From Gammaproteobacteria bacterium (GTDB lineage: Bacteria; Pseudomonadota; Gammaproteobacteria; Pseudomonadales; Azotimanducaceae), in assembly GCA_027292925.1 (NCBI GenBank), contig JAPUGI010000206.1, positions 1 to 60,469 of the forward strand: a stretch of DNA of 60,469 bases. Direction: 5' to 3'. Below the pieces are notes generated by a model. It did no database searches. It saw only the letters and a list, made by a program, of their open reading frames with translations, and was not told the origin of the DNA. The position numbers and the translations under genes are program-made. Shown piece by piece: positions 6,907 to 24,365 of the stretch (position 1 is the first letter of the stretch; the number at the start of each line of letters is the position of its first letter).

Positions 6907-8006
6907 AGCCAGCGTAGGGACCTGGACGCTCCAATAAGATCTGCTTGTAATTTTTCCTTGCCAGTGGCGGGATTTTCACGCAGAAAGATCTCAACGTTGA
7001 TAACGTTATCCAGGTAATGCAAGGTCAATTTCTGTATGTCTTGCTCACGTAGATAATCTTGCCAGGCAGCTAATAATTCTGTTCTAACTTCATTCCTAAG
7101 CGGCGGCATGACAGTGGTTGTGCCTTCCGCATCGTCCTCGGCGTCGATGTGGACGGTAATGTCACTGATTTCCTGGAACTTGCTCTCTAGCTGCTGGCTG
7201 ACCCAGTCACCAATATGGTGACCCTCTGAAACGCTGATGGCAGGGTCAACCTGCAAGTGGATATCGAGTATAACCGCGGACCCCATTCGACGCGTTCTTA
7301 AACTGTGGACGCCGCGAACGCCATCTGCTTTTACAATTGTTTCCTGAATGTCTGCGACATAATTTTCTGAGAGTGCAGTGTCCACCAATTCCTCGACACT
7401 CTCCTTCACCAGTTTCCAGCCAATAAGAGCGATCATGAAAGCAACTCCCATGGCCGCGACCATTTCCAGCCAGGTGATGCCAAGTATTGCACCGCCAACA
7501 CCCACAAGTACGATAATCGAGGACAAGGCATCGCTGCGATGATGCCAGGCGTTGGCCAGTAGTAGATTGGATTTTATTTTTTCGCCCATCTTCCTGGTGA
7601 TTTGATACAGCCATTCTTTTGCCGCGATGGAAATCACCGCAGCTACCAGCGCAGGCCAGGTCGGTGTGACAATCGACTCGATGTCAATCAGGCGAAGTAC
7701 ACTGTCGTATACAAGCGCTACTGCGACAAGGATTAGCACGGTGCCGAGTATCAGCGCACCCAGTGTTTCGAATCGTGCATGACCATAGGGATGGTCTTCA
7801 TCCGGCGCTTCCGTGCCAAGGCGATTCAAAAACCACACCATGATATCTGTGGCAAGATCTGAAAAAGAGTGAATACCGTCCGCGATGAGCGCATGGGAAT
7901 TGGCAAACCAACCGACTACAATTTTCAGGAGACCCAGGGCAAGATCGACCATGCCGCTTTGAATCAACAGGTTTCGTGTTTTCTGATGGCTTTGATTGGA
8001 CATCAT
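6879..8006 (-). CDS. Cation diffusion facilitator (CDF) family metal efflux transporter (FieF/YiiP-like)
   Basis: 375 aa with HALIADGIHSFSDLATD and DHPYGHARFE motifs, six predicted TM helices and a C-terminal cytoplasmic domain. The last ~9 codons (GEILIWYK*) are encoded by the terminal repeat unit. Confidence 0.85.
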   Translation of the reverse strand: MMSNQSHQKTRNLLIQSGMVDLALGLLKIVVGWFANSHALIADGIHSFSDLATDIMVWFLNRLGTEAPDEDHPYGHARFETLGALILGTVLILVAVALVYDSVLRLIDIESIVTPTWPALVAAVISIAAKEWLYQITRKMGEKIKSNLLLANAWHHRSDALSSIIVLVGVGGAILGITWLEMVAAMGVAFMIALIGWKLVKESVEELVDTALSENYVADIQETIVKADGVRGVHSLRTRRMGSAVILDIHLQVDPAISVSEGHHIGDWVSQQLESKFQEISDITVHIDAEDDAEGTTTVMPPLRNEVRTELLAAWQDYLREQDIQKLTLHYLDNVINVEIFLRENPATGKEKLQADLIGASRSLRWLGEILIWYK

Positions 8007-8057
8007 TGCTGGGTGCTTTCATTATGTTCGCTGGTGATTTGGAGATGGTAGTTTCTA

Positions 8058-8290
8058 GTGGATCATATTGATACCTGTATTGTTGGTGCTGGCGTCGTCG
8101 GGTTAGCCATTGGCAGACATGTAATTCAGACCCAAATTGCAAGGGCCCGGAGACCCCCGCTGACTTTGTTATCCAGGGAGAAAATATTCATGGCAACGAA
8201 TGGCTAGTTCAACTCTTTGGCATTGAATCTCACGGATTGACTTCTTCCCTGGCAATAGCAGATTATGTGGCGGACCTATTATTAGCTTGA
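8058..8290 (+). pseudogene. Remnant of an FAD-dependent oxidoreductase (DAO/LhgO-like): N-terminal dinucleotide-binding motif and C-terminal tail only
   Basis: Frame 0 from GTG 8058 reads [22 protein letters not shown]... (GxGxxG) and stops at 8205-8207. A different frame from 8204 reads [28 protein letters not shown] (stop 8288-8290), the typical C-terminus of the same family. About 300 internal codons are missing. Confidence 0.6.
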
Positions 8291-8324
8291 CCTTGTACCT
8301 GATTCAGGATTGACAATTATCATC

Positions 8325-9260
8325 ATGCACAGTCACGCGGGCCACGATCACTCCGTTGATTCTCCTCATGACCACGATCATGGGATGAATCTGGAAAACG
8401 TTAACCTGAGCTTCATTATTGCCGTTACGGCAAACTTGTTGTTCACGGTAGTTGAAGCATTTTATGCCTTTATTGCCAACTCTGTGAGCTTGTTGGGAGA
8501 TGCAGGGCACAATCTGGCTGACGTTTTGGGTCTGTTGTTAGCCTGGGGAGCCACTTACCTCGCCAGCAAGAAGGCCAGCGAATTGTATAGTTATGGCTAC
8601 CGGCGAACGACAATATTGGCCGCCATCATTAACGCCATGGTGCTTGTATTTGCGGCACTGTATATCGCTTTTGAGTCTGTTGAAAAGTTCCTGAATCCAT
8701 CTCCAATCGCTGAAATCGCAATGATGATTGTTGCCAGTATCGGCATCGCCGTCAATGCCGGTACTGCAATGTTGTTTGTAAAGGGCAGGAAAAGTGATCT
8801 TAATCTTAAAGCGGCTTTCCTGCATCTTGCCTACGACGCACTGATATCGGCTGGTGTAGTTATCGCTGCAATTGTCATCTATTTTACCGGGTGGCTATGG
8901 ATAGACCCGACGGTAGGTCTGCTGATTGTTTTTGTGATCTTGGCCGGGACATGGGGACTGTTACGTGACTCGGTTAATTTGATTCTCGATGCTGTACCAC
9001 AGGGAATTGATCGCAAAGCTGTGCATCGATACCTGCAGGAAATTACCGGGGTTAGCCAGGTTCATGATTTGCATATCTGGGCGATGAGTACTTATGAAAA
9101 TTGTCTGACTGCCCACCTGGTAATGCCGGAGAATACCTTATGGGATTCGGAAGATGGGTATGCTGCTATCGGTTCTTCCCTCAAGGAAAAGTTCAATATC
9201 CATCACGTCACACTGCAGGTTGAAAAAGATATGGAGTGCGCCAACCTGGATTGTGACTAG
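8325..9260 (+). CDS. czcD: CDF family Zn/Co/Cd efflux transporter (CzcD/ZitB-like) with His-rich N-terminus
   Basis: MHSHAGHDHSVDSPHDHDHG... is followed by SVSLLGDAGHNLADV and FLHLAYDALIS (CDF signature HxxxD pairs). The track start is TTG 8310, but I prefer ATG 8325. Confidence 0.85.
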   Translation: MHSHAGHDHSVDSPHDHDHGMNLENVNLSFIIAVTANLLFTVVEAFYAFIANSVSLLGDAGHNLADVLGLLLAWGATYLASKKASELYSYGYRRTTILAAIINAMVLVFAALYIAFESVEKFLNPSPIAEIAMMIVASIGIAVNAGTAMLFVKGRKSDLNLKAAFLHLAYDALISAGVVIAAIVIYFTGWLWIDPTVGLLIVFVILAGTWGLLRDSVNLILDAVPQGIDRKAVHRYLQEITGVSQVHDLHIWAMSTYENCLTAHLVMPENTLWDSEDGYAAIGSSLKEKFNIHHVTLQVEKDMECANLDCD

Positions 9261-9281: not shown

Positions 9282-10457
9282 ATGCCATCGTTGCAGGAAT
9301 TCATCAAAGATTCGATCAACAGCGCCCCGGCCGAGCCGGTGAAACTAAGTGATGCTGTTGCAATTGAGGAAGTACCTACTCCGGCATTAATCATTGATCT
9401 TGATCTATTCGAGAGGAATCTCGACAAGATGCAAACCTATTTGCGTAACAATAGTATTGATCTGCGGTGCCACACAAAAATGCACAAATGCCCGATAATC
9501 GCGCACAAACAAATTGATGCAGGGGCGATAGGAGTCTGTGCTGCAACGGTGAGTGAAGCTGAAGTAATGCAGACAAACGGAATAACCAATGTTTTGATTA
9601 CTTCACCTGTAGTGACACCAGAGAAAATTGATCGTGTAATAACACTTGGCGTTGACAACCCAGATCTGCAGATGGTGATCGATGACATCGAGATTGCAAA
9701 TCTGTTCAATAAAGCTGCGAAGCGGTCCGGCATACAATTGAGTGTGTTGATAGACCTTGATCCTGGGATGGGTAGAACAGGTATCGAAATGGGTGACCCT
9801 GCGTTGACGCTGGGTAATCACATTGTCGACAACTGCGACAGTTTGAGATTCGGTGGTTTGCAAATGTATGCAGGGCACTGCATGCACATAGAGGGTTTCG
9901 AGAATCGTCGAGGAAAATATAATCACATCATGGGGAAGGGGGCTGAAACAAAAACCCTATTTGAAGAATCCGGGATCGAGGTGCCTGTTTTCTCCGGAGG
10001 CGGCACGGGTACATTTAATATTGAGGCAGGCCTCGGTCTGATGACAGAGCTGCAGGCCGGGTCCTATATATTCATGGATATTGAATACCGGGAAATCGGC
10101 GGCGAGGGAAGCGAGCGGTTTGAGGATTTCGAGCCGTCACTGTTCGTTCTGGTCACCGCCATCAGCAAACCGCAGCAGCGACTGATTACGGTCGATGCCG
10201 GGTTCAAATCCTTTGCTTCTGACAAGATGGCACCGGAATTCAGGGATGTCGAAGGTGTCATTTTTCACTGGGGCGGCGATGAACACGGCATCATTCAACT
10301 GACAAATCCGTCCCGGGAAATCAACCTGGGTGACAAACTACCCATGTTGACACCTCACTGCGACCCCACCGTAAACCTGTATGATTACTATTATCCGGTG
10401 AGAGACGGGATGGTTGAAGAATTGTGGCCGATTACAGCCAGGGGACGTTCACAATAA
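9282..10457 (+). CDS. DSD1-family PLP enzyme (alanine-racemase-fold; D-Ser/D-Thr/3-hydroxy-D-Asp dehydratase or aldolase type)
   Basis: 391 aa. TPALIIDLDLFERNLDKM...LRCHTKMHKCPIIAHKQIDAGAIGVCAATVSEAE contains the PLP-Lys of the HTK motif. The C-terminal half (HCDPTVNLYD) looks like the D-serine-dehydratase-like beta domain. Confidence 0.72.
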   Translation: MPSLQEFIKDSINSAPAEPVKLSDAVAIEEVPTPALIIDLDLFERNLDKMQTYLRNNSIDLRCHTKMHKCPIIAHKQIDAGAIGVCAATVSEAEVMQTNGITNVLITSPVVTPEKIDRVITLGVDNPDLQMVIDDIEIANLFNKAAKRSGIQLSVLIDLDPGMGRTGIEMGDPALTLGNHIVDNCDSLRFGGLQMYAGHCMHIEGFENRRGKYNHIMGKGAETKTLFEESGIEVPVFSGGGTGTFNIEAGLGLMTELQAGSYIFMDIEYREIGGEGSERFEDFEPSLFVLVTAISKPQQRLITVDAGFKSFASDKMAPEFRDVEGVIFHWGGDEHGIIQLTNPSREINLGDKLPMLTPHCDPTVNLYDYYYPVRDGMVEELWPITARGRSQ

Positions 10458-11474
10458 ATGAAGAAGGCGCCATATTTTGAAGACTTTAGCGTTGGTGATG
10501 AGTTTAATGATGTTCCCGCGATAACCCTGACCGAGGGGCATACCGCCATCCATCAGGCATTGTTTGCTGATCGATCAAGGTTACCGTTGGATCTGGAACT
10601 GAGCGCCAGGGTTACAGGCCACGCGAAGGCGCTGGTGAATCCGTCGCTGGTCTGTAATTTAGCCATTGGCCAGAGTACGATTCCATCGCAACGAGTCATG
10701 GGTAACCTGTTTTATCGGGGATTGCATTTTCACCGACCTGTCTATGTCGGCGACACGCTGAAGACGACAACGCGGGTAGTCGCGCTGCGCCAGAACCAGA
10801 TTAAAAAAGACAGGGCGGCGTCCGGCATGGTCGCTCTGGAAATGCATGTCACCAATCAGACAGATGAAACTGTGCTACTGTTCTGGCGCTGTCCAATGAT
10901 CCCCTGCGAGGATCCAAAAGCTGATACAGGTTGTAGTGATAATTTTGAACGGATGCCGGAAGACATCAGTGATAGCAGCCTCGTCTCCTATATTCCGGAA
11001 TGGGACTATGATCATTTTCGGGATGCCCTGGCCGGTAAGCACTTCGTTGACTATCGATCTGGTGACATCTTCGAGATTGAGACCAGGGACACCGTGACAC
11101 TTGCACCGGAACTGGTTCGTATGACGTTAAATATGGCAATGACGCACACGGATGCCGACCGGTCAGTTTATGGAAAACGTCTGGTTTTTGGGGGGCACAC
11201 AATTTCGATGGCAGCCGCTCACATTAGTCATGCCTTCCCGAATATCATTACTATTCTCGCTTGGTATAAATGTGATCATGTCGCGCCTGTGTTCGAATTC
11301 GATATCCTAAATACCGTGGTGCAGGTTGAAGAAGTTCTGCCCGCCGACTCGTTTGGTCTGGCGAAAATTCACGCTGAGGTGTTTGCGACCAGGGGACCGG
11401 AAGCCCCGGAATCGTCGGGAGTTGGGGGAAATATCAAGGTACTCGATTGGAACCTGGCGGCACTGCTTGCGTAA
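10458..11474 (+). CDS. Double hot-dog MaoC-like enoyl-CoA hydratase (mesaconyl-/itaconyl-CoA hydratase-like)
   Basis: 338 aa. The N-terminus YFEDFSVGDEF...TLTEGH...ALF resembles Mch/Ich-type hydratases. Its ATG directly abuts the upstream stop (TAAATG), implying translational coupling. Confidence 0.65.
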   Translation: MKKAPYFEDFSVGDEFNDVPAITLTEGHTAIHQALFADRSRLPLDLELSARVTGHAKALVNPSLVCNLAIGQSTIPSQRVMGNLFYRGLHFHRPVYVGDTLKTTTRVVALRQNQIKKDRAASGMVALEMHVTNQTDETVLLFWRCPMIPCEDPKADTGCSDNFERMPEDISDSSLVSYIPEWDYDHFRDALAGKHFVDYRSGDIFEIETRDTVTLAPELVRMTLNMAMTHTDADRSVYGKRLVFGGHTISMAAAHISHAFPNIITILAWYKCDHVAPVFEFDILNTVVQVEEVLPADSFGLAKIHAEVFATRGPEAPESSGVGGNIKVLDWNLAALLA

Positions 11475-11509
11475 AAGTTGACGAGGGTGAGGGAAGGTGA
11501 GAAAGGCAA

Positions 11510-12718
11510 TTGGCAGGAATACTTAAAGGTCTTTGTATAGTCGAAGGCAGCGCGTTTGTTGCCGCGCCTCTCGGTGGAATGACGCTGGCGCAGCTGGGCG
11601 CGGACGTCATCAGGTTTGACCCAATTGGTGGTGGCCTGGATTACAAGCGCTGGCCAGTGACCCGTGATGGCAATAGCCTTTTCTGGGCAGGCATGAATAA
11701 GGGAAAGCGCTCTATCGCCGTGGATATGAGGAAGCCAGAAGGCAGGGAACTGTTAACCGCCCTGATCAGCCGCGACGGACCTGACAGGGGGATTTTCCTG
11801 ACTAACTTTCCCGAACGTGGCTGGCTGGCTTTCGATGAGTTACAAAGCAAACGCCAAGACCTGGTTTACATCAATATACTCGGTGATAGAAAAGGCGGTT
11901 CTGCTCTGGACTACACCGTTAACTGTGCAGTTGGTTTCGCCAATGCAAACGGTAAGCCTGACAACGATGAACCCGCTAATTACCTTCTACCAGCCTGGGA
12001 CAATATTACCGGGCAGATGGCTGCGGTCGCACTGCTGGCTGCTGAAAGGCATCGAAGGATAACAGGCGAAGGCCAGTTGGTGAAAATTGCCCTGAAAGAT
12101 GTGGCGCTGGCCATAACCGGGCATCTCGGAAATATCGGGGAGGTTGCGGTTAACCACCAGGACAGGGAAAAAGTCGGCAACTATCTATATGGCGCCTTTG
12201 GGCGTGACTTCCTGACAAAGGATAAAGAACGAGTGATGATAGTCGGGCTCACGCTAAGACAATGGCAGGCAATCCTCGCATCCATGAACCTGTCGCAGGC
12301 AATCGCTGACCTGGAAGTCCGACTGGGCGTGGATCTGGATCAGGAGGGGGAACGATTTCAAGCGAGGCAGGCAATCGCCGAATTGATAGAGCCGTGGTTT
12401 TTACAACACGACTACGCTCATGTTTCGTCTTTGTTTGACCAGCATGGTGTTTGCTACGGACCCTACAGAAGCTTTAAGCAGATGGTGGAAAACGATACTG
12501 ACTGCTCACTTGATAATCCGCTTTTTTCGATGGTCACTCAGCCTGGAATTGGAGAGTACCTGGCACCGGCTTCTCCTATCAGGTTTTCCAGTGTTGAAAA
12601 TCTTGATGCCATGGCTGCGCCGACATTAGGTGAACACACCGATGAAATTCTGGCAGAGGATCTTGGATTGACCAGCAGTGAAATTGGAGCGTTACACGAC
12701 AGCCAGATAGTTGCCTGA
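11510..12718 (+). CDS. Family III CoA-transferase, mesaconyl-CoA C1-C4 CoA transferase (Mct)-like
   Basis: 402 aa with a TTG start. Blocks VEGSAFVAAPLGGMTLAQLGADVIRFDPIGGGLDYKRWPVT, LFWAGMNKGKRSIA, ERHRRITGEGQLVKIALKDVALA and GNYLYGAFGRDF are near-identical to what I recall of Chloroflexus aurantiacus Mct. Confidence 0.7.
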   Translation: MAGILKGLCIVEGSAFVAAPLGGMTLAQLGADVIRFDPIGGGLDYKRWPVTRDGNSLFWAGMNKGKRSIAVDMRKPEGRELLTALISRDGPDRGIFLTNFPERGWLAFDELQSKRQDLVYINILGDRKGGSALDYTVNCAVGFANANGKPDNDEPANYLLPAWDNITGQMAAVALLAAERHRRITGEGQLVKIALKDVALAITGHLGNIGEVAVNHQDREKVGNYLYGAFGRDFLTKDKERVMIVGLTLRQWQAILASMNLSQAIADLEVRLGVDLDQEGERFQARQAIAELIEPWFLQHDYAHVSSLFDQHGVCYGPYRSFKQMVENDTDCSLDNPLFSMVTQPGIGEYLAPASPIRFSSVENLDAMAAPTLGEHTDEILAEDLGLTSSEIGALHDSQIVA

Positions 12719-13982: not shown

Positions 13983-16946
13983 ATGGGTGACGATACCAAA
14001 AGAGACACCAAAAACGATAACTCTGATGTCGGCTCTGATGTAAAAACATACGGCCGCCTGCTGGCTTATGTTATTCCCTACTGGGGCGCGTTCCTTGTCA
14101 GTATCATTGGCTTTCTTATCTATTCACTATCAAATGTCAGCTTCCTGCAATTAATTAGCTACATCGTTGATTCAGTGAAAAGCCCCGACCCGCTTTTACA
14201 ATCGGAGTACAGCGCTTTTTTGCAAGACATTTTTGGACAGCGCGATTCCTTAAACCGAACCGTTATTCCAATCGCCATTGTCACCATAGTGGTATGCCGT
14301 GGTCTTGGAACGTTTATTGGAAACTACTTTATCAGCTATGTATCTACGAACCTGATACACAATCTGCGATGCGAGCTATTCGATCAACTATTAAAGTTAC
14401 CCAGCAAGTTTTACGACAAGAGTGCCATGGGTCATCTCGTGGCGAAAGTAACCTTTCATGTCACGCAGGTAAGCGGCGCTGCAACAGATGCCGTTCGAGT
14501 CATCATCAGGGAAGGTTTTACGGTTCTTGGTTATCTAGCATTCCTTCTCTACCTGAACTGGAAACTGACATTGATATTTTTTGCTGTGGCCCCCTTTATC
14601 GCGTTGCTGGTTAACTTCACTGGCAGGAGATTCCGCCGAATCAGCGAACGCATTCAGCATTCAATGGGTGACGTGACTCATGTTGCTTCTGAGGCAGTGC
14701 AAGGTTACCGGGTGGTCAGGACCTTCGGTGGAACGGAGTATGAACGTCAGCGCTTTACCAAAGTCAGCCATTACAATCGACGCCAATCAATGAAAATGGT
14801 GGTCACTTCAGCTATTTCTACGCCAGTCATTCAGTTGCTGGTGGCGACAGCGTTGGCGGGCCTGGTTTGGCTGGTATTGGACCCGATATTATTGGCGAAC
14901 ATGAGCGCAGGTAATGTAGTTGCTTTCATCACCACGGGTGGATTGTTGGCGAAACCTATTCGCCAGTTATCCGAGGTCAATGCCACGGTACAAAGAGGGC
15001 TTGCTGCGGCTGAAGATATTTTTGACTTGTTTGACCAGGAAGTTGAAGAAGACCAGGGTGAACTAGAACTTGAGACAGTCAGTGGACGAGTTGAATTTAG
15101 AAATGTTTCCTTTTCCTATGGGGAGGATCTCCCACAAGTTCTAAAGGATATCAGTTTCACTGCCAGACCTGGGGAAACCATCGCCCTGGTAGGAAGGTCA
15201 GGTAGTGGGAAAAGTACGCTGGCGAGTCTGATCCCCGCTTTTTATGCGCCTACCAGCGGTACCATCTTGCTCGATGAAAAGCCAATCGAATCATTCTCTT
15301 TAACCAATTTGCGTCAACATATCGCCCTGGTCACGCAGCAGGTAACCTTGTTCAACGATACCATCGCTAAGAACATTGCTTATGGGGAACTGGCCGATTC
15401 CAGTGAAGAGGAAATTATTGAAGCGGCCAAAAAGGCGTTTGCCTGGGAATTTATTTCTGAGTTGCACAATGGCCTGGACACTGTGATTGGAGATGACGGT
15501 GTTTTACTATCTGGAGGACAACGGCAACGTCTGGTCATTGCCAGGGCATTCCTTAAAAATGCACCAATACTGATATTAGATGAAGCAACATCTGCGCTTG
15601 ATTCGGAATCTGAGAGGTACATTCAGACTGCTCTTGAAGCTGTGGTTAAAGGCAGGACAACATTTATCATTGCACATAGATTAACAACCATTGAAAAAGC
15701 AGACCGGATACTCGTCATTGATAATGGTCGCGTCGTAGAGCAGGGCACCCACACACAATTGTTAGCAAACGAAGGTTTTTACTCAGGATTTTACAATCGA
15801 GATGGGCAGGAGAAGCCTGAAACCGAGGCATCTATTCATCGGGCAGTTGGAGATTTCCTTCCGGTTCCCCATGTGCCTGATCGGAGTCGTTGGTTTTCGG
15901 AAGATTTTAATCCATTGTCAAAGGCCTGGTACTCAGGTGCAACCTGGGTGAAGTTTCTGAGACCTCTCGGGTTTCTCTATAACCAGTTGGGGCAAATAAG
16001 ACGGCAACGTATTGAACGTGATTCAAGGTCATGGAAAGCACCTGTACCGGTGATAGTAGTGGGAAATATCAATGTCGGGGGTACAGGTAAGTCACCACTG
16101 GTTATCTGGCTGGCGGAGCAGTTTTCTGCCAGGGGAATGAATCCAGGTATCGTTTCTCGTGGCTATGGGGGGGCCAGTCGACAATATCCTTTTGTGGTTG
16201 ATGCCCAGACAGACCCGAAGGTTGCCGGTGATGAGGCAGTCATGATCGCCCGCAGGACGAATTGCACCGTTGTCGTAGATCCAGACAGGGTGTGTGCTGT
16301 AAGGCGTCTTCTCGAAGTTACCGATTGTGACCTGGTGATCAGTGACGACGGTCTGCAGCACTATTTTCTTCAACGCGATGTTGAAATTGCAGTCGTTGAC
16401 GGGGAAAAAGGGTTGGGTAACGCCTTGTGTTTACCGGCGGGTCCGCTACGAGAACCTCCGGAAAGATTGAAAGAAGTCGATTTTGTGATCGTTAACGGCA
16501 AGGAAGATGTGAAAATACCTGTGTCCTATCAGCATATGATTCTGATTCCGACCGCGATCATTAACATAGCAACGGAGGAGTCCCAGCCGCCCCATTCAGA
16601 GGGCAAACCTGGCCAGGGCGTGCATGCGGTAGCTGGTATCGGAAATCCCGACCGTTTTTTTAGAATGTTGCGTGAACTTGGCTACCAGGTCATTGAACAT
16701 CCGTTTCCGGATCATCATTTGTTTGAATTATCGGAGTTGGTTTTCGGAGATTCGTTACCCGTCATCATGACTGAGAAAGATGCGGTAAAGTGCAGATTGC
16801 TAAATCTTGATTTGGTCCATCAGGAGTTTTGGTATTTGGAAGTTGGTGCGGAATTACCTCCTGTTTTTGTTACTTCCGTTCTCAGCAAAACGGGATTGAA
16901 TGTAACTCCACTTCATGTGATACCTAACGAAACAGCTAAGGTGTAG
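13983..16946 (+). CDS. msbA-lpxK: Fusion protein: lipid A flippase MsbA (ABC TMD+NBD) plus tetraacyldisaccharide 4'-kinase LpxK
   Basis: 987 aa in one uninterrupted frame. Residues ~1-605 form an ABC exporter (Walker A GRSGSGKST, signature LSGGQRQR, Walker B ILILDEATSALD) ending ...LLANEGFYSGFY. After a ~35-aa linker comes LpxK (APVPVIVVGNINVGGTGKSPLVIWLAEQF...GIVSRGYGG...DDGLQH). Confidence 0.85.
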   Translation: MGDDTKRDTKNDNSDVGSDVKTYGRLLAYVIPYWGAFLVSIIGFLIYSLSNVSFLQLISYIVDSVKSPDPLLQSEYSAFLQDIFGQRDSLNRTVIPIAIVTIVVCRGLGTFIGNYFISYVSTNLIHNLRCELFDQLLKLPSKFYDKSAMGHLVAKVTFHVTQVSGAATDAVRVIIREGFTVLGYLAFLLYLNWKLTLIFFAVAPFIALLVNFTGRRFRRISERIQHSMGDVTHVASEAVQGYRVVRTFGGTEYERQRFTKVSHYNRRQSMKMVVTSAISTPVIQLLVATALAGLVWLVLDPILLANMSAGNVVAFITTGGLLAKPIRQLSEVNATVQRGLAAAEDIFDLFDQEVEEDQGELELETVSGRVEFRNVSFSYGEDLPQVLKDISFTARPGETIALVGRSGSGKSTLASLIPAFYAPTSGTILLDEKPIESFSLTNLRQHIALVTQQVTLFNDTIAKNIAYGELADSSEEEIIEAAKKAFAWEFISELHNGLDTVIGDDGVLLSGGQRQRLVIARAFLKNAPILILDEATSALDSESERYIQTALEAVVKGRTTFIIAHRLTTIEKADRILVIDNGRVVEQGTHTQLLANEGFYSGFYNRDGQEKPETEASIHRAVGDFLPVPHVPDRSRWFSEDFNPLSKAWYSGATWVKFLRPLGFLYNQLGQIRRQRIERDSRSWKAPVPVIVVGNINVGGTGKSPLVIWLAEQFSARGMNPGIVSRGYGGASRQYPFVVDAQTDPKVAGDEAVMIARRTNCTVVVDPDRVCAVRRLLEVTDCDLVISDDGLQHYFLQRDVEIAVVDGEKGLGNALCLPAGPLREPPERLKEVDFVIVNGKEDVKIPVSYQHMILIPTAIINIATEESQPPHSEGKPGQGVHAVAGIGNPDRFFRMLRELGYQVIEHPFPDHHLFELSELVFGDSLPVIMTEKDAVKCRLLNLDLVHQEFWYLEVGAELPPVFVTSVLSKTGLNVTPLHVIPNETAKV

Positions 16947-16949
16947 TTC

Positions 16950-17132
16950 ATGGTACTCGATAAGAAGTTGCTAAGTATTCTCGTTTGTCCTTTGTGTAAA
17001 GGGAAGCTTGATTATGACAAAGAGAAAGACGAGCTGATCTGCCGGGCAGATAACCTCGCTTATCCCATTCGAGATGATATTCCGGTCATGCTCGAGTCTG
17101 AGGCTCGATCCCTGGGTATTGACGATAGGTAA
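16950..17132 (+). CDS. ycaR: Trm112/YcaR-family small zinc-ribbon protein
   Basis: 60 aa. [47 protein letters not shown] parallels E. coli YcaR, and the gene is in the conserved position before kdsB. Confidence 0.8.
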
Positions 17133-17134
17133 GA

Positions 17135-17902
17135 GTGCTGAACTTTACCGTTATTATACCGGCCCGATATCAATCGATACGGCTGCCAGGCAAACCCCTG
17201 ATCGATATCGGGGGTAAACCCATGGTGCAAAGAGTGTATGAACAGGCTGCTCGCAGTGATGCCGTTCAAGTAATAGTGGCAACTGACGATGAAAGGATTG
17301 TATCTGCGGTAAAAAGTTTTGGTGGAGAAGTTTGCCTGACCCGGGAGGATCACCCCTCTGGCACCGACCGTTTGCAGGAAGTCTGCTCAATCAGGCAGCT
17401 TAGTGACGATCATGTGGTTGTCAATGTGCAGGGGGATGAACCCCTGATACCCCCGGCAGTTATTAACCAGGTCGCCAATAATCTCGTTGACTCCGGTTCG
17501 AAGATGGCGACTTTATCTGAAGGCATTGATGATATTGCAGATCTGATGGATCCCAATATTGTCAAAGTAGTGATCAATCACAATTCCAATGCGATGTACT
17601 TCAGCAGGGCGCCTATCCCGTGGCCCAGAGATGAATTTTCTACCCTGGAAAAAAGCCTGCCTGAATTTGCTAAATGCCAGCGCCATCTGGGCATCTATGC
17701 ATACAGGGTGTCCCTGCTCAACAGATTTGTTAAGTGGGAACCGAGCATCCTGGAAAAAACAGAGAAACTGGAGCAATTACGAGCACTGTGGCACGGAATC
17801 GAGATACATGTTGAACAGGCGATTGAAAATATCCCTCCAGGTATAGATACTGAGAAGGATTTACGGCGCACAATAGCACTGATAGATGAAGAGCGTTTTT
17901 GA
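17135..17902 (+). CDS. kdsB: 3-deoxy-manno-octulosonate cytidylyltransferase (CMP-KDO synthetase)
   Basis: 255 aa with a GTG start. Motifs: IIPARYQSIRLPGKPL, GTDR, VNVQGDEPLIPP. Confidence 0.9.
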   Translation: MLNFTVIIPARYQSIRLPGKPLIDIGGKPMVQRVYEQAARSDAVQVIVATDDERIVSAVKSFGGEVCLTREDHPSGTDRLQEVCSIRQLSDDHVVVNVQGDEPLIPPAVINQVANNLVDSGSKMATLSEGIDDIADLMDPNIVKVVINHNSNAMYFSRAPIPWPRDEFSTLEKSLPEFAKCQRHLGIYAYRVSLLNRFVKWEPSILEKTEKLEQLRALWHGIEIHVEQAIENIPPGIDTEKDLRRTIALIDEERF

Positions 17903-17914
17903 AAGAAGAAGGCC

Positions 17915-19339
17915 ATGCCTGATTTTGTACTTGTTGTAAAAGAAGACTGCGCGACTTGCCGATTGGTGGTTCCAGTAGTTAACCAACTGGCTAAACTTTT
18001 TGACCTGGAAGTATATTCTCAGGATAACCCGAATTTCCCGCCAGAAATTAGTGTCATTGATGACAGCGAATTGGAAAAGTCCTGGTCACTCAACATAGAA
18101 ACAGTACCAACCATCATCAAGTACGATCATAGTAGCGAAACTGGTCGCAGCTTTGGTTGGGACAGAGAGGCCTGGGAAGCCTTAACAGGTGAATCATTGA
18201 TACCTGATCTACCTGATTTTAGACCCGGGTGTGGATCCAGGACAATGGATCCGGGGATGCTGGAAAAATTGTCGGTAAAGTTTGGAAAGGACAAATTACA
18301 CTCCAGACGAGTTATTACGGCAGATGAAGAAGACGAAATTGAGGCGTGTTTTGACCGAGACTGGTCTGATGGTTTTCCGGTAGTTCCTCCAACTGAAATC
18401 AGGGTAGTGAGGATGTTGTCGGGAACGTTCCGCGATCCGGTAGAAGTAATCGGCACAGTGCCACCGGATTACGGTGAATGCACGATAGAAAAAATTGCCG
18501 TTAATGCGGTGATGGCAGGATGCAAACCCGAGTACCTGCCTGTTGTCATTACAGCCGTTGAAGCCGCCCTGCAGGATGAATTCTGTATGCATGGGTTGCT
18601 GGCAACTACCTATTTTTCAGGACCCATGGTATTGGTTAATGGTCCCATTTCGCGCGCCATCGGGATGAATTCAAGAGGCAATGCCCTGGGTCAGGGCAAT
18701 CGCGCCAATGCCACTATCGGGCGGGCACTCCAACTGGTGATACGCAACGTTGGAGGTGGCAAACCTGGAGGTGTAGATCGTTCCGTTCTTGGCAACCCAG
18801 GCAAATATTCCTACTGTTTTGCCGAAGACGAGACCAACTCCTGCTGGGAGTCTTTGGCAGTTGAAAAGGGTTTCACCAGTGATCAGTCAACTGTAACGCT
18901 GTTTGCTGCAGATGGCATGCAAGGAATTGTAGATCAGAAGTCCCGCGAGCCTGAATCATTAGCACGCACCTTTGCCGCTGGGTTAAGAGTCGCTTCACAT
19001 CCAAAGCTGGTTATGGCAGCAGATGCCTTCCTGGTTGTATCGCCGGAACATGAGAGGGTTTTCAGAGACGCAAACTGGTCGAAACAACAATTGAAGGACA
19101 AGCTCAATCAATTACTGATGATTCCCGGCGCGGAACTCGTCATCGGTGCAAACGGTATTGCAGAGGGGATTCCTGAAAAATTCAGGGATGCGACATTGCC
19201 TAAATTTCGCGAAGGTGGATTGAACATTGTAAGAGCAGGCGGAAGTGCAGGGCTATTCTCTGCCATAATCGCAGGATGGGGAGCCAGTGGGGATATTGGC
19301 AGTGTTCCAGTCACCCGTGAAATCTCCCACCTCCAGTAA
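17915..19339 (+). CDS. Thioredoxin-fold (CxxC) domain fused to a ~370-aa conserved domain of unknown function
   Basis: 474 aa. The N-terminal ~100 aa, VVKEDCATCRLVVPVVNQL...ETVPTIIKY, look like a Trx-like fold with a CATC dithiol. I cannot assign the rest (DWSDGFPVVPPT, AVNAVMAGCKPEYLPV, NALGQGNRANATIGRALQL) to a named family. It starts 12 nt after kdsB. Confidence 0.6.
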   Translation: MPDFVLVVKEDCATCRLVVPVVNQLAKLFDLEVYSQDNPNFPPEISVIDDSELEKSWSLNIETVPTIIKYDHSSETGRSFGWDREAWEALTGESLIPDLPDFRPGCGSRTMDPGMLEKLSVKFGKDKLHSRRVITADEEDEIEACFDRDWSDGFPVVPPTEIRVVRMLSGTFRDPVEVIGTVPPDYGECTIEKIAVNAVMAGCKPEYLPVVITAVEAALQDEFCMHGLLATTYFSGPMVLVNGPISRAIGMNSRGNALGQGNRANATIGRALQLVIRNVGGGKPGGVDRSVLGNPGKYSYCFAEDETNSCWESLAVEKGFTSDQSTVTLFAADGMQGIVDQKSREPESLARTFAAGLRVASHPKLVMAADAFLVVSPEHERVFRDANWSKQQLKDKLNQLLMIPGAELVIGANGIAEGIPEKFRDATLPKFREGGLNIVRAGGSAGLFSAIIAGWGASGDIGSVPVTREISHLQ

Positions 19340-19368
19340 ACAGTTAACGGTAACAAAAGGAGCTAATC

Positions 19369-19887
19369 ATGAGCACCACATTAATGGACCCGACTTCGGA
19401 GATGGCTTCGGAGCACCGGGAGCCCCTTCCAAGGCCAACCTCGTTGGATGGTTTAACGGTGGGCTTACTGGATATTTCCAAAGCTCGTGGCGACATCTTC
19501 ATTGATCGGATTGAAGACCTGCTGGTCCAGCGAGGGATCAAAACACGCCGCTATAAAAAGCCAACGTTTACTCGAGTTGCTCCCCTAGAACTGACACAGC
19601 AGATCGCAACTGAATGTGACGTTGTTGTGGAGTCGCTGGCCGATTGAGGTTCATGTACGTCGTGCAGTTTGCATGACATTCTGGATCTTGATAGAAGGGG
19701 ACTCCCCGGTGGGTTTGTCGCATCTGAAGAATTCGTAGAGGCTGCCAGCGCCCAGGCAAAATCGCTGGGCTTTGATCCCCATAAGGTTTTTGTCCCTCAT
19801 CCGATCCAGGACAGGACCGATGAGGAGATGCAACAGATTGCCGAAAATGCGTTTGACGAGGTACTCGCGCTAATCTTGAGTAAATAG
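19369..19887 (+). CDS. UGSC-motif selenoprotein (Sec encoded by TGA at 19645-19647); merges track ORFs 19369..19647 and 19669..19887
   Basis: Both ORFs are in the same frame. Read-through gives ...ECDVVVESLAD-U-GSCTSCSLHDILDL.... A strong SD (AAGGAG) precedes 19369, and there is no SD before the TTG at 19669. A SECIS-like hairpin lies 11 nt after the UGA. Confidence 0.7.
19659..19677 (+). promoter_or_regulatory. Candidate bacterial SECIS hairpin
   Basis: GUCGUGC-AGUUU-GCAUGAC forms a 7-bp stem (one G.U) with a 5-nt loop containing GU. It starts exactly 11 nt 3' of the UGA, the spacing of the minimal E. coli fdhF element. Confidence 0.5.
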
Positions 19888-19911
19888 TGCGCCAAGCTCG
19901 TCATGCTTCGC

Positions 19912-19938
19912 GCCCTCAGCATGACCGAAGCTGAGGGC
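19912..19938. terminator. Hairpin between convergent genes (possible bidirectional terminator)
   Basis: GCCCTCAGC-atgaccgaa-GCTGAGGGC forms a 9-bp stem. An overlapping alternative is GACCGAAGC...GCTTCGGTC. There is no clear U-tract. Confidence 0.4.
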
Positions 19939-19946
19939 GGCTTCGG

Positions 19947-20717
19947 TCACCGTGGCGCCATGCGAATGCCACTGTCGAGGCGGATAACTTCTCCATTGAT
20001 ATAAGTGCAGTTAACGATAAAGGCGGCAGTCTGCGCGAACTCAGTGGGATCTCCCAGCCGCATTGGGAACTGCGTCATTTCGATAAGGGGTTCGCGTACC
20101 TCGGGTGGTGCAAACTGCATCATTGGAGTTTCGAATATACCGGGCGCGATAGTTGCAATCCGAATACCCTGTCGACTCAGATCGCGGGCAATTGGCAAGG
20201 TCATGCCAGCAACACCTGCTTTACTTGCACTGTAGGCTGCCTGGCCTATCTGGCCATCAAATGCTGCAACTGAAGCCACATTCACAATCACGCCGCGTTC
20301 ACCATCTTCTGTGACTGGTTCATTGTTCTGCATCACCTCGGCACATAACCGCAGGCAGTTGAATGTTCCTATCAGGTTAACTCTCAATACAAATTCGAAT
20401 GCCTCAAGTGGCATAGGACCGTTTTTTCCAACGGTTCTACCGGCAGCTCCGATTCCGGCGCTATTGACGTTTATATGTAGACCTCCCAATGCATCGACAG
20501 TTTTCTGTATTGCTGCTTTGACGGCTTCTTCATCTGCAACATCACCCGCTGCCCAGCTGGCGTTATCACCTAGATCTTCTGCTGCTTTCTGGGCGTTTTC
20601 CTCATTTAGGTCAAATACCATGACTTTAGCGCCAGCGTTTATAAAGTTGTCTGCGGTTGCGCGGCCCAATCCGGATGCACCCCCAGTGATGAACGCAACC
20701 TTGTTTTGTAAATCCAT
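19947..20717 (-). CDS. Short-chain dehydrogenase/reductase, 3-hydroxyacyl-CoA dehydrogenase type II-like
   Basis: MDLQNKVAFITGGASGLGRAT is the TGxxxGxG motif, and YSASKAGVAGMT is the YxxxK motif. I prefer the Met at 20717 to the track start at 20765. Confidence 0.8.
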   Translation of the reverse strand: MDLQNKVAFITGGASGLGRATADNFINAGAKVMVFDLNEENAQKAAEDLGDNASWAAGDVADEEAVKAAIQKTVDALGGLHINVNSAGIGAAGRTVGKNGPMPLEAFEFVLRVNLIGTFNCLRLCAEVMQNNEPVTEDGERGVIVNVASVAAFDGQIGQAAYSASKAGVAGMTLPIARDLSRQGIRIATIAPGIFETPMMQFAPPEVREPLIEMTQFPMRLGDPTEFAQTAAFIVNCTYINGEVIRLDSGIRMAPR

Positions 20718-20823
20718 GAAGTTTTTTCCAAACAGGTGTGAAAGTGAGCAGGCAGTATACCTCACTAAAAAACACCTCTAAGTAGCGGGTATAATCCGGT
20801 GGAAAACAGACGGTATCGTTAAT

Positions 20824-21825
20824 TTGCAACTCCAGGAAAATTTCAGTCTAGCCAAACACAACACACTTGGTCTTGATATTTCCACTCGTTACTTCTGCAG
20901 AGCCCATTGCCAGCAGGAATTGTCAGAAGTGCTGGCGTTCGCCAGAGAGGAAAAACTAAGAATTCTCGTGCTTGGAGGCGGCAGTAATATTGTATTTACG
21001 AAGAATTTTGACGGGTTGGTTTTGATGCTAGATTTCCGCGGTGTACAGGTCGATGGTCAAAAAGTCACCGTTGGTGCAGGGGAAAATTGGCATTGGCTGG
21101 TGCGGCATACTTTGCAGAGAGGTTTGTTCGGCCTCGAAAATCTGTCCCTGATTCCAGGTCTTGCCGGGGCCGCGCCGATTCAGAACATTGGCGCCTATGG
21201 CCAGGAATTGGACCAGGTATTCGTGGAACTTGAGGCAACAGACCTCTCAACCGGTGAAGAAATCAACTTTACTAGTAGCGACTGCTGTTTTGGTTATCGC
21301 CACAGCATTTTCAAGGATGAACTTAAAGACCGAATGGCCATAACACATATCACCTTACGGCTCTGTTCGGATTTTACCCCGATCCTGAATTATCAGGATG
21401 TCGTAAATGAACTCGAGAGTCTGGGGGAAGGAATACCAACAGCAACGGACATAAGTGATGCAGTGATCGCGGTCAGGAAGCGAAAACTTCCCAACCCGGA
21501 CAAGCAGGGCAATGTTGGTAGTTTCTTCAAAAATCCAGAGATGCAGTCTCAAAAATTGGAGAAGTTCAAGCAGCGATGGCCGGATGTACCCTCGCGTCAA
21601 CTGCAGAGCGGCGTCCACAAAATACCCGCTGCCTGGCTAATCGAGAAGGCGGGAATGAAGGGTATGTCCATCGGTGATGCTGCGGTTTCAACACTGCACG
21701 CCCTGGTCATCGTGAACCGGGGAAATGCCAGTAGCGGGGATGTTTTGGGGCTGGGCGCAAGGGTTGAAAAACAGGTTCTAGCTGAGTTCGGTATTCGACT
21801 AGAGATAGAACCCGTATTCTACTAA
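20824..21825 (+). CDS. murB: UDP-N-acetylenolpyruvoylglucosamine reductase
   Basis: 333 aa with a TTG start. Motifs: [50 protein letters not shown]. Confidence 0.9.
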
Positions 21826-24365
21826 CCAGCTTGTTGCTCAGATTCTGACGCTTTTTGCGGCTCATCATCCGGCGGCGTAATGTCCGTGGATTCTATCGAA
21901 GCGTTATCTGGAGTTTCTACCGGGCTCGCATCCGGCGAATTTTCTTGTTCTGCTTCGGATGAAGCCGTATCAGTCACCACGCCACCACCTCTGGGATCAT
22001 TTGCAGCACGACCACGGGTGCTGGGGTGGGTGGAGTTGATGATTGGCTCAACAAATTCCAACACTTCAACCTGGGGTGTTACTGGTGCTTCAACCAGCAC
22101 CGGTCCTGAAGATACAGGGGCAGGTTTATTTCGAGGGTCGTTGTCTGCCCGACCACGTTCCGATGCATGAACCACCTGCTCTGCAGGCTTTTCAGTCGTT
22201 TCAATAGATTTGCTTGCAATAACTGGTTCGGCTGCAGGTACCTTCGGCTTTTCTGCAGTTATTTCCGGACGACTGGCTGGTGGGCTCGGATCTTTCTTTA
22301 CTTCACGCTTAGCCTCATGCTGCGATGGCTTGCTGTTTTCGCTCGCACGCGCAGACTCCACCGGCCGACTGCGGCGTTTTTGCTGACCACGTTCCCGATT
22401 TCCCTGGTTTCGTTTGTCCTCTCCTTTCTTCTCAGCCTGTTCTGTTTCACGGGACCTGTCCCTTGGTTTCCCCGCGCGATTCTGCTCTGCACGCTCGGTG
22501 CGGTTAGCGGATTTACGGCTATCGTTACTTTTACGATTGTCCTCGTTGCTCCGGTTTCGGTTACCACGTTGCTCGGTACGCCGTTTGTTTCGATTGTCTT
22601 CCTGCCGGTTTCTTGAACTTTGGTCACGATCGACTCGGCGGTTGATTTCGCTACGTTCTCTTGTTTTCTGAGGTGGTCTCGATGCTACCTTTGCATCTGC
22701 AGTGAAGATCGAAATGATACTCGCCAGAAGTCCCGATCCGTTTTTCTTTGCGGGTTTTGGTGGTGGTGCTGCAGGCGTAACACTTTTCACCGCTGCTTTC
22801 TCAGGTGCAATTGCCTTGGCGACGGGCTGTGGCGCTTCTTCCATCTCGTCGGAGCTGGTTATCTCGTAGCTGGCCACGCTGTCTTCGCCTTCATCCGCGC
22901 GGATTCGCTCTACTCTGTAGTGCGGCGTCTCCATGGTTGCCTCTGGAACGACAATCACTCGTACGTCGTTTCTTTCCTCTATTTCACTTAACACATTGCG
23001 TTTTTCATTCACAAGGAATGAGGCGACAGATATGGGCAGGAATGCCCTGATTTCAGCGCTGGTGTCCTTGAGTGCTTCTTCCTCCACCATGCGAATGACC
23101 GCTAGCGCAGAGGATTCAATATCCCTGATCGAACCAAGGCCGCTACAGCGAGGGCAAACGATGGCGTGGGTTTCGCCCAATGAAGGTCGTAATCTTTGTC
23201 GGGACATTTCCAACAGGCCAAAGCGGGAAATTCTGCCCACCTGGACCCTGGCGCGGTCAACCTGCAGTGCATCTCGCATTCGGTTCTCAACTATGCGCTG
23301 GTTTTTCGGCGATGTCATATCTATAAAATCGATCACGACAAGTCCGCCGATATCACGTATCCGTAACTGGCGGCAGATTTCGTCGGCCGCTTCCAGGTTT
23401 GTGTTGAGCGCAGTTTCCTCGATATCTGCACCACGAGTAGCTCTCGCTGAATTGATGTCGATCGAAACAAGCGCTTCTGTCGGGTCAATCACAACAGAAC
23501 CCCCGGAAGGCAAAGTAACCCCTCGTTGGAAGGCCGATTCAATCTGGCCCTCAATCTGATATCGGTTGAAAAGGGGTACATCACTTTCGTAGCGCTTAAT
23601 TCTTGATTTGAACTGGGGCATGACCTGCTCAACGAACTGATTGGCCTGCTCAAGTGCTTCGTCGGTGTCGATCAGTATTTCGCCAATATCATCACGCAGA
23701 TAATCGCGGATGGCACGAATGATGACGTCGCTCTCCTGATAGATCAGGAAGGGTGCTTCCTGTTCTTTTCCGGCTGTTTTTATGGCTTCCGCCAACTGGA
23801 GAAGATAATTAAGGTCCCACTGCAGTTCCTCGGCGCTTCTGCCAAGCCCTGCGGTGCGAACGATGACCCCCATGTTTTTGGGAACCTCAAGTTTTGCCAG
23901 GGACTCTCTTAACAGATCGCGCTCTTCACCATCGATTCGACGGGATATTCCACCGGCACGCGGGTTATTCGGCATTAGTACCAGGTAGCGACCGGCCAGG
24001 CTGCAGAACGTTGTCAGTGCTGCACCCTTATTGCCGCGTTCTTCCTTGTCAACCTGGACGACAATCTCCAGACCTTCCTTGATTACCTCAGAAATGTTGA
24101 TCCGTCCCTTGATCTTTGAGGGGGGAATAGAGAAATATTCTCGAGCAATTTCTTTAAGAGGGAGGAAGCCATGGCGATTGCCACCAAAGTCCACGAAGGC
24201 GGCTTCAAGGCTCGGCTCAACCCGGGTGATCCGGGCCTTATAAATATTGGCTTTTTTCTGTTCCCTGGCCCTGCTTTCAATGTCCAGGTCGTACAGTTTT
24301 TGCCCGTCTACCAGGGCAACTCGCAACTCCTCGGTGTGAGTTGCATTAATTAACATTCTTTTCAT
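21822..24365 (-). CDS. rne: Ribonuclease E
   Basis: 847 aa starting [30 protein letters not shown]. It has S1, DNase-I-like and Zn-link (CPRCSG) catalytic domains, then an Arg/Pro/Glu-rich low-complexity scaffold tail. Confidence 0.95.

Follow-up and report, generated by a model that had tools for sequence, protein, structure and literature searches.

A thioredoxin-fold fusion protein encoded with a UGSC-family selenoprotein: a probable thioredoxin-driven seleno-reductase

What task do two adjacent genes share when one encodes a 474-amino-acid (aa) protein that begins with a thioredoxin-fold domain and the other encodes a selenoprotein, and both lie between kdsB and murB? We addressed this question in a stretch of 60,469 nucleotides (nt), contig JAPUGI010000206.1 of assembly GCA_027292925.1 (Gammaproteobacteria bacterium, Azotimanducaceae), which we call the window and to which all coordinates of this locus refer. 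A prediction made from the DNA letters alone had proposed that the CxxC thioredoxin module and the UxxC selenoprotein form a dedicated redox couple. This idea is partly supported: it is right in spirit, and it needs re-centring on the large C-terminal domain of the 474-aa protein (domain D) together with the UGSC-family selenoprotein. With a probability of roughly two in three, the thioredoxin–D fusion (Trx-D) and the UGSC protein constitute a heteromeric, thioredoxin-driven seleno-reductase, of which we infer the electron flow and the catalysis.

The D–UGSC pair across genomes

An open reading frame (ORF) at 17915–19339 (+ strand, stop codon counted) encodes the 474-aa Trx-D protein, as supported by the ORF call, homologues, and an AlphaFold2 (AF2) model. 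In agreement with the original prediction, it carries an N-terminal CATC motif and the other sequence motifs quoted there, and it starts 12 nt beyond the kdsB stop at 17902 (KdsB: NCBIfam TIGR00466, 296 bits). The UGSC gene, likewise found where it had been predicted, 29 nt after the Trx-D stop, spans 19369–19887 (+ strand, 172 aa, stop codon counted) and is preceded by an AAGGAG Shine-Dalgarno sequence; its assignment is based on hidden Markov model matches and on a frame that continues past an in-frame TGA at 19645–19647. With selenocysteine (Sec) written as cysteine, the UGSC protein scores above the family cut-offs of both PF24696 (144.5 bits, 4.6e-42, cut-off 25) and NF041046, “UGSC family (seleno)protein” (144.5 bits, cut-off 125). 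It is a clear member of this family, the “UGSC-containing protein” of Zhang and Gladyshev, with ~170 aa, a D-U-G-S-C motif, and a hairpin resembling a selenocysteine insertion sequence (SECIS). The protein itself is not different from other members of the family; its genomic context is new.

We retrieved 80 species-level genome loci with the 474-aa protein (Trx-type loci), independently scanned metagenome contigs with stand-alone D proteins (80 loci without Trx), and surveyed cultured organisms through the PLSDB plasmid collection. UGSC lies directly downstream of Trx-D, on the same strand, in 78 of the 80 genomes, which include Gamma-, Alpha-, and Betaproteobacteria, Actinomycetota, Chloroflexota, Nitrospirales, Myxococcota, Gemmatimonadota, Spirochaetes, and others; because it recurs in this way, the pair is not a product of chance. 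In one exception (L028), the place of UGSC is taken by a transposase-like ORF of 310 aa that has Cys pairs of the zinc-ribbon type (7850–8782, − strand), and in the other (L061) a convergent gene for an ATP-binding cassette (ABC) ATPase follows Trx-D. Among D relatives without Trx, 77 of 80 metagenome loci have a UGSC-homologous region next to D or fused to it, and in two of the three loci that lack one, D lies at a contig edge. Where the motif could be scored (72 metagenome loci), UGSC is always on the same strand as D (72/72), upstream in 62 and downstream in 10; it is fused to D in 21. UGSC–D fusion proteins are numerous and occur in both Cys and Sec forms, and one Sec-containing fusion was read through directly. 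The claim that the two genes form a dedicated unit, linked in other genomes, is borne out by this neighborhood survey, by the natural fusions, and by the presence of Sec in 76 of 76 evaluable Trx-type loci. Support for the pairing is very strong, and as obligate partners D and UGSC form the conserved core of the system.

Domain D comprises residues ~130–474 (~340 aa; 18302–19336, + strand), as delimited by homologue clusters and conservation. It had been described as a domain that could not be placed in any characterized family, and our searches agree. Neither domain D nor ten diverse relatives matched Pfam or NCBIfam at E ≤ 0.1; searches against PDB sequences with a single sequence and two profiles returned thioredoxins or noise only; and Foldseek searches of the PDB with two AF2 models gave no match for D at E ≤ 0.001. 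The family comprises 5736 clusters at 50% identity (match at E ≤ 0.001), in which D occurs alone (~350 aa), duplicated (~713 aa), fused to UGSC, or behind an AhpC/TSA- or Redoxin-type domain. Chains with two tandem copies (~710–740 aa) are P0167, P0179, P0191, P0211, P0226, and P0232. All D homologues in PLSDB are labelled “hypothetical protein” or carry no annotation. Among 96 diverse members, two cysteines are conserved, C203 (91%; in M-A-G-C, 18521–18523) and C301 (90%; 18815–18817), and G243, N265, and R270 are kept in 100%, with N265 and R270 the most conserved polar residues. In Trx-type loci, C203 is present in 80/80 and C301 in 79/80.

AF2 folds P0228, a natural Cys-type UGSC–D fusion, into one compact body (predicted local distance difference test score [pLDDT] 92.6; predicted template modelling score 0.93), and a Foldseek search of the PDB with this model found no neighbor at E ≤ 0.001. 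The Cys motif equivalent to UxxC lies where a beta-strand ends and a helix starts, within a flavodoxin-like alpha/beta domain. The UGSC part gave weak flavodoxin-like matches only, such as lumazine synthase, and these give no support to a suggestion made in 2008 that UGSC has a Trx-like fold.

Selenocysteine decoding and the thioredoxin system

The in-frame UGA at 19645–19647 (+ strand) is predicted to be decoded as Sec93, in the motif D-U-G-S-C96-T-S-C99, based on TGA conservation and the open frame. The read-through product contains ESLAD-U-GSCTSCSLHD, and the frame remains open and conserved beyond the TGA to 19887. All 76 evaluable Trx-type genome loci have TGA at the homologous codon, with the motif D-U-G-S-C-(T/I)-(S/T)-C; in metagenome loci TGA occurs at 75 sites, and every in-frame stop at the Sec position is TGA. 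The 72 scorable metagenome loci without Trx comprise 66 with Sec and 6 with Cys, and across all scored pairs Sec occurs in 142 of 148.

A SECIS-like hairpin with a 7–8 bp stem and an apical G-U-N loop was identified at 19659–19677 (+ strand) by covariation and folding, and its stem begins 11 nt past the UGA. All 77 distinct sequences form the core pairs; one pair is GU, GC, or AU, another changes from CG to UA with both sides altered, and the apical loop has G-U in all 77. At this hairpin the window sequence folds at −25.8 kcal/mol (z-score −2.2). An Rfam scan of 17000–22000 gave no match, and the window contains no tRNA gene (so no tRNA-Sec), no selA, and no selB.

No third gene is conserved across the 80 genome loci, and recurrent neighbors of the cassette (Trx-D plus UGSC) are limited to selB/selA and a thiolase. 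In betaproteobacterial loci, selB lies directly downstream of the cassette in 10 cases and selA in 6, a sign that these genomes may retain the Sec machinery chiefly for UGSC. The loci with selA and/or selB directly 3′ on the same strand are L022, L025, L026, L039, L045, L012, L023, L043, L052, and L059. The thiolase gene lies directly downstream of the cassette in 8 loci, mostly gammaproteobacterial. The sel genes 3′ of several betaproteobacterial pairs, together with selB near the pair in Paracoccus and DsrE, TusA, and cysteine desulfurase near the pair in Paracoccus ferrooxidans, could also be read as signs that the D/UGSC module serves selenium or sulfur trafficking, as a selenide or persulfide carrier for selenoprotein or cofactor synthesis. 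We find this very doubtful, as sel genes commonly adjoin whichever selenoprotein the genome encodes, Cys forms and numerous paralogues occur in genomes or contexts without sel genes, and no linkage to selD, ybbB, or yedF was seen.

The third cysteine of the UGSC motif, C99, is present in 76 of 76 Trx-type pairs versus 10 of 103 motifs elsewhere, and W, Y, or another residue holds this position in ~90% of non-Trx-type motifs. C99 tracks the thioredoxin fusion; an association with trxB adjacency was ruled out, with C99 in 2 of 16 motifs from loci that carry a TrxB-like gene. The CxxCxxC-like spacing in Trx-type UGSC, the several invariant cysteines of the Trx-type protein, and a weak structural match of D to class I fumarase, an Fe–S enzyme, would fit a different role, in which UxxCxxC and the D cysteines bind a metal or an Fe–S cluster in an electron-transfer or Fe–S hydro-lyase-type protein. 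This is highly improbable: the third Cys is replaced in most other UGSC motifs, just two cysteines are conserved across D, Sec would be unusual as a cluster ligand, and the coupling to the thioredoxin system indicates dithiol/selenol chemistry.

Residues 1–105 of the 474-aa protein (17915–18229, + strand) form a thioredoxin-fold domain, as identified by Foldseek, a profile search, and conservation. It contains the motif C12-A-T-C15 (17948–17959) and a cis-Pro loop, V64-P65-T66; C12, C15, and P65 are kept in 80/80 loci. In Foldseek searches of the PDB with the AF2 model of the 474-aa protein (pLDDT 82), this domain matched many thioredoxins (probability 1.00, target-normalized template modelling [TM] score 0.5–0.7), and the alignment profile of the 474-aa protein matched PDB thioredoxins at E = 0.008. 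No Pfam or NCBIfam thioredoxin model matched at E ≤ 0.1, and the active site reads D-C-A-T-C, with canonical WCGPC not present; for these reasons, we regard the domain as a divergent thioredoxin fold and not a canonical TrxA. A linker motif, R-P-G-C106-G-S (18221–18238, + strand), was recognized by the conservation of C106, which is found in 80/80 Trx-type loci and is invariant in alignment A1. In most relatives without the Trx fusion the C106 region is absent or gapped, and Cys occurs there in 3 of 84. The full Trx-D architecture is represented by >8000 clusters at 90% identity, mostly of ~471 aa.

Genes of the thioredoxin system recur beside D and UGSC. In Arthrobacter sp. ERGS1:01, the order is trxB-trxA-D-UGSC; here a canonical WCGPC TrxA is encoded by a gene whose stop overlaps the D start, and trxA plus D is the unfused counterpart of the Trx-D protein in the window. 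Roseovarius sp. THAF8 has D-UGSC-trxB, and Variovorax sp. SRS16 has trxB-SBP-SDR-D-UGSC (SBP, solute-binding protein; SDR, short-chain dehydrogenase/reductase). On metagenome contig L089 a TrxB-like gene is followed by UGSC, DUF6282, and D, and on L091 a Sec-type UGSC–D fusion is followed by a gene with an FeThRed_B domain (ferredoxin:thioredoxin-reductase catalytic subunit). Apart from L089, a TrxB-like gene is present in the D locus in 8 of 80 metagenome loci. In several D relatives an AhpC/TSA- or Redoxin-type N-terminal domain replaces thioredoxin. Taken together, Sec in 142 of 148 pairs, the UxxC motif, and two kinds of fused thioredoxin-fold domain make thiol/selenol redox chemistry recycled by thioredoxin the most economical reading. 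The proposed CxxC–UxxC couple agrees with this repeated, independent association with the thioredoxin system; however, D–UGSC is the primary pair, and thioredoxin, fused in one branch only, acts as an accessory donor of electrons.

The same architecture and electron path could serve detoxification or repair, with Sec93 reducing a peroxide, sulfoxide, disulfide, or similar oxidant by way of selenenic acid and Se–S intermediates that thioredoxin recycles, and with D as a specificity or scaffold module that has no metabolic substrate site. Several features fit: full-length orthologues of the Trx-fused form in 80 species of many phyla are highly conserved (53–73% identity) and occupy unrelated, often housekeeping contexts outside catabolic clusters; methionine sulfoxide reductases (Msr) and peroxiredoxins (Prx) are the typical cases of a Cys/Sec reductase fused to thioredoxin; relatives carry AhpC/TSA- or Redoxin-type domains; and the hosts are aerobic aquatic bacteria. 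Such a role is nevertheless unlikely. Trx-less relatives occur as several paralogues per locus near solute transporters and carboxylate catabolism, which is unusual for repair; D is large, strongly constrained, and the most conserved part, as expected of a catalytic part more than of a scaffold; and no similarity to a known peroxidase or sulfoxide reductase appeared in Pfam, NCBIfam, or Foldseek searches against the PDB. Trx–MsrA/MsrB fusions (such as PilB) and hybrids of Prx with glutaredoxin do follow the same logic, in that a donor is fused to a Cys/Sec reductase and versions with separate genes exist. Unlike these proteins, the D–UGSC module is unrelated to Msr, Prx, or ArsC and has no structural neighbor in the PDB, and the reactive Sec of the window system is carried on a separate small subunit.

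Proposed mechanism, substrate, and related systems

The two genes, the Sec recoding signals, the linkage and fusion of D and UGSC, and their repeated genomic association with the thioredoxin system form the basis of a thioredoxin-driven seleno-reductase model, in which the two proteins would form a complex in the source organism. The catalytic core would consist of D and UGSC, with Sec93-x-x-Cys96 of UGSC as the reactive centre, probably working at the D interface. D would contribute its two conserved cysteines (C203 and C301) and conserved Arg and Asn residues, which might bind a negatively charged substrate, probably a carboxylate. Sec would attack the substrate, an Se–S bond would then form, and the fused Trx domain (C12/C15) would re-reduce this bond, possibly via C106 and UGSC C99. 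These two cysteines, found mainly in the Trx-fused branch, may extend the relay. Finally, an NADPH-dependent thioredoxin reductase encoded elsewhere in the cell would recharge the Trx domain, so that electrons would run from the reductase toward Sec and the fused thioredoxin would take the place of a separate TrxA.

Some observations weigh against this model. UGSC has been described as a selenoprotein of unknown function (PMC1976440, PMC2398784, PMC9312934, PMC13188914). A few UGSC partners have no second Cys (e.g., P0239, HCGASSSW), and ~9% of D domains are without C203 or C301. TrxB adjacency is found in just ~10% of loci without the Trx fusion, which makes the coupling recurrent and not universal. 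In addition, trxB lies beside the cassette neither in the window nor in most of the 80 genomes, as is expected if a housekeeping TrxB serves. The D/UGSC neighborhoods are heterogeneous, and no single substrate is named by them.

As a weak clue, these neighborhoods point to a small anionic metabolite as the substrate class, probably a small carboxylate. Trx-less relatives often occur in several copies per locus, beside solute-binding proteins of the tripartite tricarboxylate transporter (TTT), tripartite ATP-independent periplasmic (TRAP), and ABC types. Further neighbors are Iso_dh-type dehydrogenases, CaiB-type CoA-transferases, MmgE/PrpD, amidohydrolases including DUF6282, isocitrate lyase/phosphoenolpyruvate (PEP)-mutase-family proteins, and aconitase X. 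Genes annotated as “phosphosulfolactate synthase” lie near D/UGSC in Arthrobacter (L179, 3695–4483) and Natrinema (L180, 2862–3329), and an enolase gene adjoins the UGSC–D fusion in Vibrio (L177, 8011–9288); these may hint at PEP or organosulfonate chemistry, with too few cases to judge. Aconitase X with its DUF126 small subunit was observed beside UGSC–D fusion genes in Vibrio europaeus (L177, 4001–5710) and Sporomusa termitida (L184, 1851–3556). The DUF6282 protein, which has an HxH motif and an amidohydrolase-like appearance (L089, 6133–6987; L091, 8627–9493; L180, 7030–7863), is encoded by a recurrent third gene of Trx-less D/UGSC clusters in bacteria and one haloarchaeon; this gene is absent from the window.

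The neighboring Iso_dh, aconitase X, MmgE/PrpD, isocitrate lyase/PEP mutase family, and CoA-transferase genes belong to pathways that often need isomerases or hydro-lyases, and D plus UGSC could accordingly be imagined as a non-redox isomerase, racemase, hydro-lyase, or decarboxylase with small carboxylates as substrates. Sec or Cys would then act as general base or nucleophile, with thioredoxin merely keeping the active site reduced. Two conserved cysteines in D and one in UGSC recall two-base Cys enzymes, and class I (Fe–S) fumarate hydratase, TtdAB, and AcnX likewise combine a large and a small subunit and have carboxylate-metabolism neighbors. A weak Foldseek match of D to class I fumarase was obtained with the first, pLDDT-82 model (E 1.1e-3, TM score 0.23, root-mean-square deviation >10 Å). 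Nevertheless, a non-redox role is improbable. The 50 best matches listed for the better, pLDDT-92.6 model did not include fumarase, and no sequence match was found. Sec, present in nearly all scored pairs, is almost confined to redox enzymes, and UxxC is a redox signature; a hydro-lyase would not be expected to use Sec and thioredoxin. Upkeep alone would hardly call for dedicated trxB/trxA genes, an FeThRed_B-domain gene, and fused thioredoxin-fold domains.

In working principle, the systems closest to the proposed seleno-reductase are protein B of glycine/sarcosine/betaine reductase and D-proline reductase (GrdB/GrdE, PrdB/PrdA). They share with D–UGSC a two-part enzyme in which a selenoprotein with a UxxC(xxC) motif after a beta-strand has a larger partner, and their substrates are small carboxylates, as proposed here. 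Glycine reductase draws its electrons from the thioredoxin system, with trxB/trxA in the same operon. Encoding Trx/TrxB with the enzyme is common to D–UGSC loci and glycine reductase, a hint of mechanism and not of membership. Homology of UGSC to GrdB/PrdB was rejected, with no PF07355 match and with an hhalign comparison of 76 UGSC sequences to GrdB-like reads from Global Ocean Sampling (GOS) that is not significant (E 0.54, probability 0.1), with the Sec residues in register. Against the Gly_reductase family (GrdE/PrdA), D gave no PF09338 match and no sign of a pyruvoyl pro-enzyme. In contrast to glycine reductase, D–UGSC has no GrdA, GrdC, or GrdD equivalents, and whereas Grd/Prd hosts are amino-acid-fermenting anaerobes, D–UGSC hosts are mostly aerobic planktonic or soil bacteria.

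A further step, which we offer only tentatively and would sooner doubt than adopt, is that D–UGSC represents a new class of selenoenzyme with a catalytic fold not seen before, performing thioredoxin-driven reductive bond cleavage of a common dissolved small carboxylate, possibly an organosulfonate. Its function would parallel glycine/proline reductase, in aerobic planktonic and soil bacteria and haloarchaea. If true, this would account for the abundance of UGSC in water and for the retention of selA/selB directly behind the cassette; such a new reductive reaction would also give the aquatic carbon or sulfur cycle a selenium-dependent step, and many “hypothetical protein” and “thioredoxin family protein” annotations would be corrected.

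UGSC has been catalogued since ~2005–2008 and is among the most abundant bacterial selenoproteins of aquatic metagenomes. It now gains a near-universal partner, with thousands of sequence clusters, no Pfam or NCBIfam model, and no PDB relative, as well as a likely electron source in the thioredoxin system. Compact operons in cultured Roseovarius sp. THAF8, Arthrobacter sp. ERGS1:01, Variovorax sp. SRS16, and Paracoccus make UGSC function testable. The original prediction knew of no characterized system with this composition; UGSC itself was already curated, and a 2008 GOS paper notes a “UGSC/Unknown_1” fusion, in which Unknown_1 may be D. Apart from that mention, the obligate partner D, the near-universal linkage, and the thioredoxin coupling appear to be undescribed in the searchable literature.

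Gene context in the window

The original prediction had placed a third gene, encoding an SDR, between kdsB and murB as well. The gene is present, convergent to UGSC, at 19947–20765 (− strand; PF00106, 8.7e-49). The mechanical ORF start is a GTG at 20765, and the conserved SDR N-terminus (MDLQNKVAFITGG) starts at an ATG at 20717, which is the likelier start and coincides with the end of the segment originally described. As a third component the SDR was ruled out: only 3 of the 80 loci contain an SDR from that cluster, and the closest metagenome-assembled genome (MAG; L001) has no SDR between UGSC and murB.

The insertion of the cassette between kdsB and murB, also part of the original description, holds for three close Pseudomonadales relatives (L001–L003), in two of which kdsB overlaps the Trx-D start; elsewhere, the neighborhoods are unrelated. 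The SDR gene and the kdsB–murB location are thus lineage-specific and lie outside the functional unit.

Based on NCBIfam, the upstream flank encodes an ExbB/TolQ-like protein, an MsbA–LpxK fusion, YcaR, and KdsB, and beyond the SDR gene come murB, then rne (− strand), then rluC (MurB, RNase E, RluC). This is the predicted flank order with one departure, in that lpxK does not stand alone. MsbA (lipid A flippase; TIGR02203, 726 bits) and LpxK (TIGR00682, 270 bits) are encoded by a single 987-aa ORF at 13983–16946 (+ strand), and the fusion ORF was also found in the related MAG loci L001–L003. The order had been likened to that of Pseudomonas aeruginosa PA2983–PA2960, where ptpA presumably occupies the kdsB–murB slot.

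A scan for promoters and terminators between kdsB and the cassette gave no consensus above chance. Between the convergent UGSC and SDR genes, a G+C-rich hairpin with a 12-bp stem was identified by folding at 19922–19949 (no strand assigned), and the surrounding segment 19885–19955 folds at −33.6 kcal/mol (z-score −3.4). This hairpin likely ends the transcription unit; a simple terminator scan missed it because a T run is absent.

Two other regions of the window deserve mention. Three successive genes at 9282–12718 (+ strand) form a small C4/C5-dicarboxylate-CoA cluster unrelated to the cassette; their products resemble 3-hydroxy-D-aspartate aldolase (BhcC, below the cut-off), a RipB/Ich-type enoyl-CoA hydratase, and a CoA-transferase of the 2-methylfumaryl-CoA isomerase type (585 bits against a cut-off of 725). 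In rne (22000–23000, − strand), AT skew reaches −0.51 over the C-terminal half of RNase E, a low-complexity stretch rich in Arg, Asn, Lys, and Glu.

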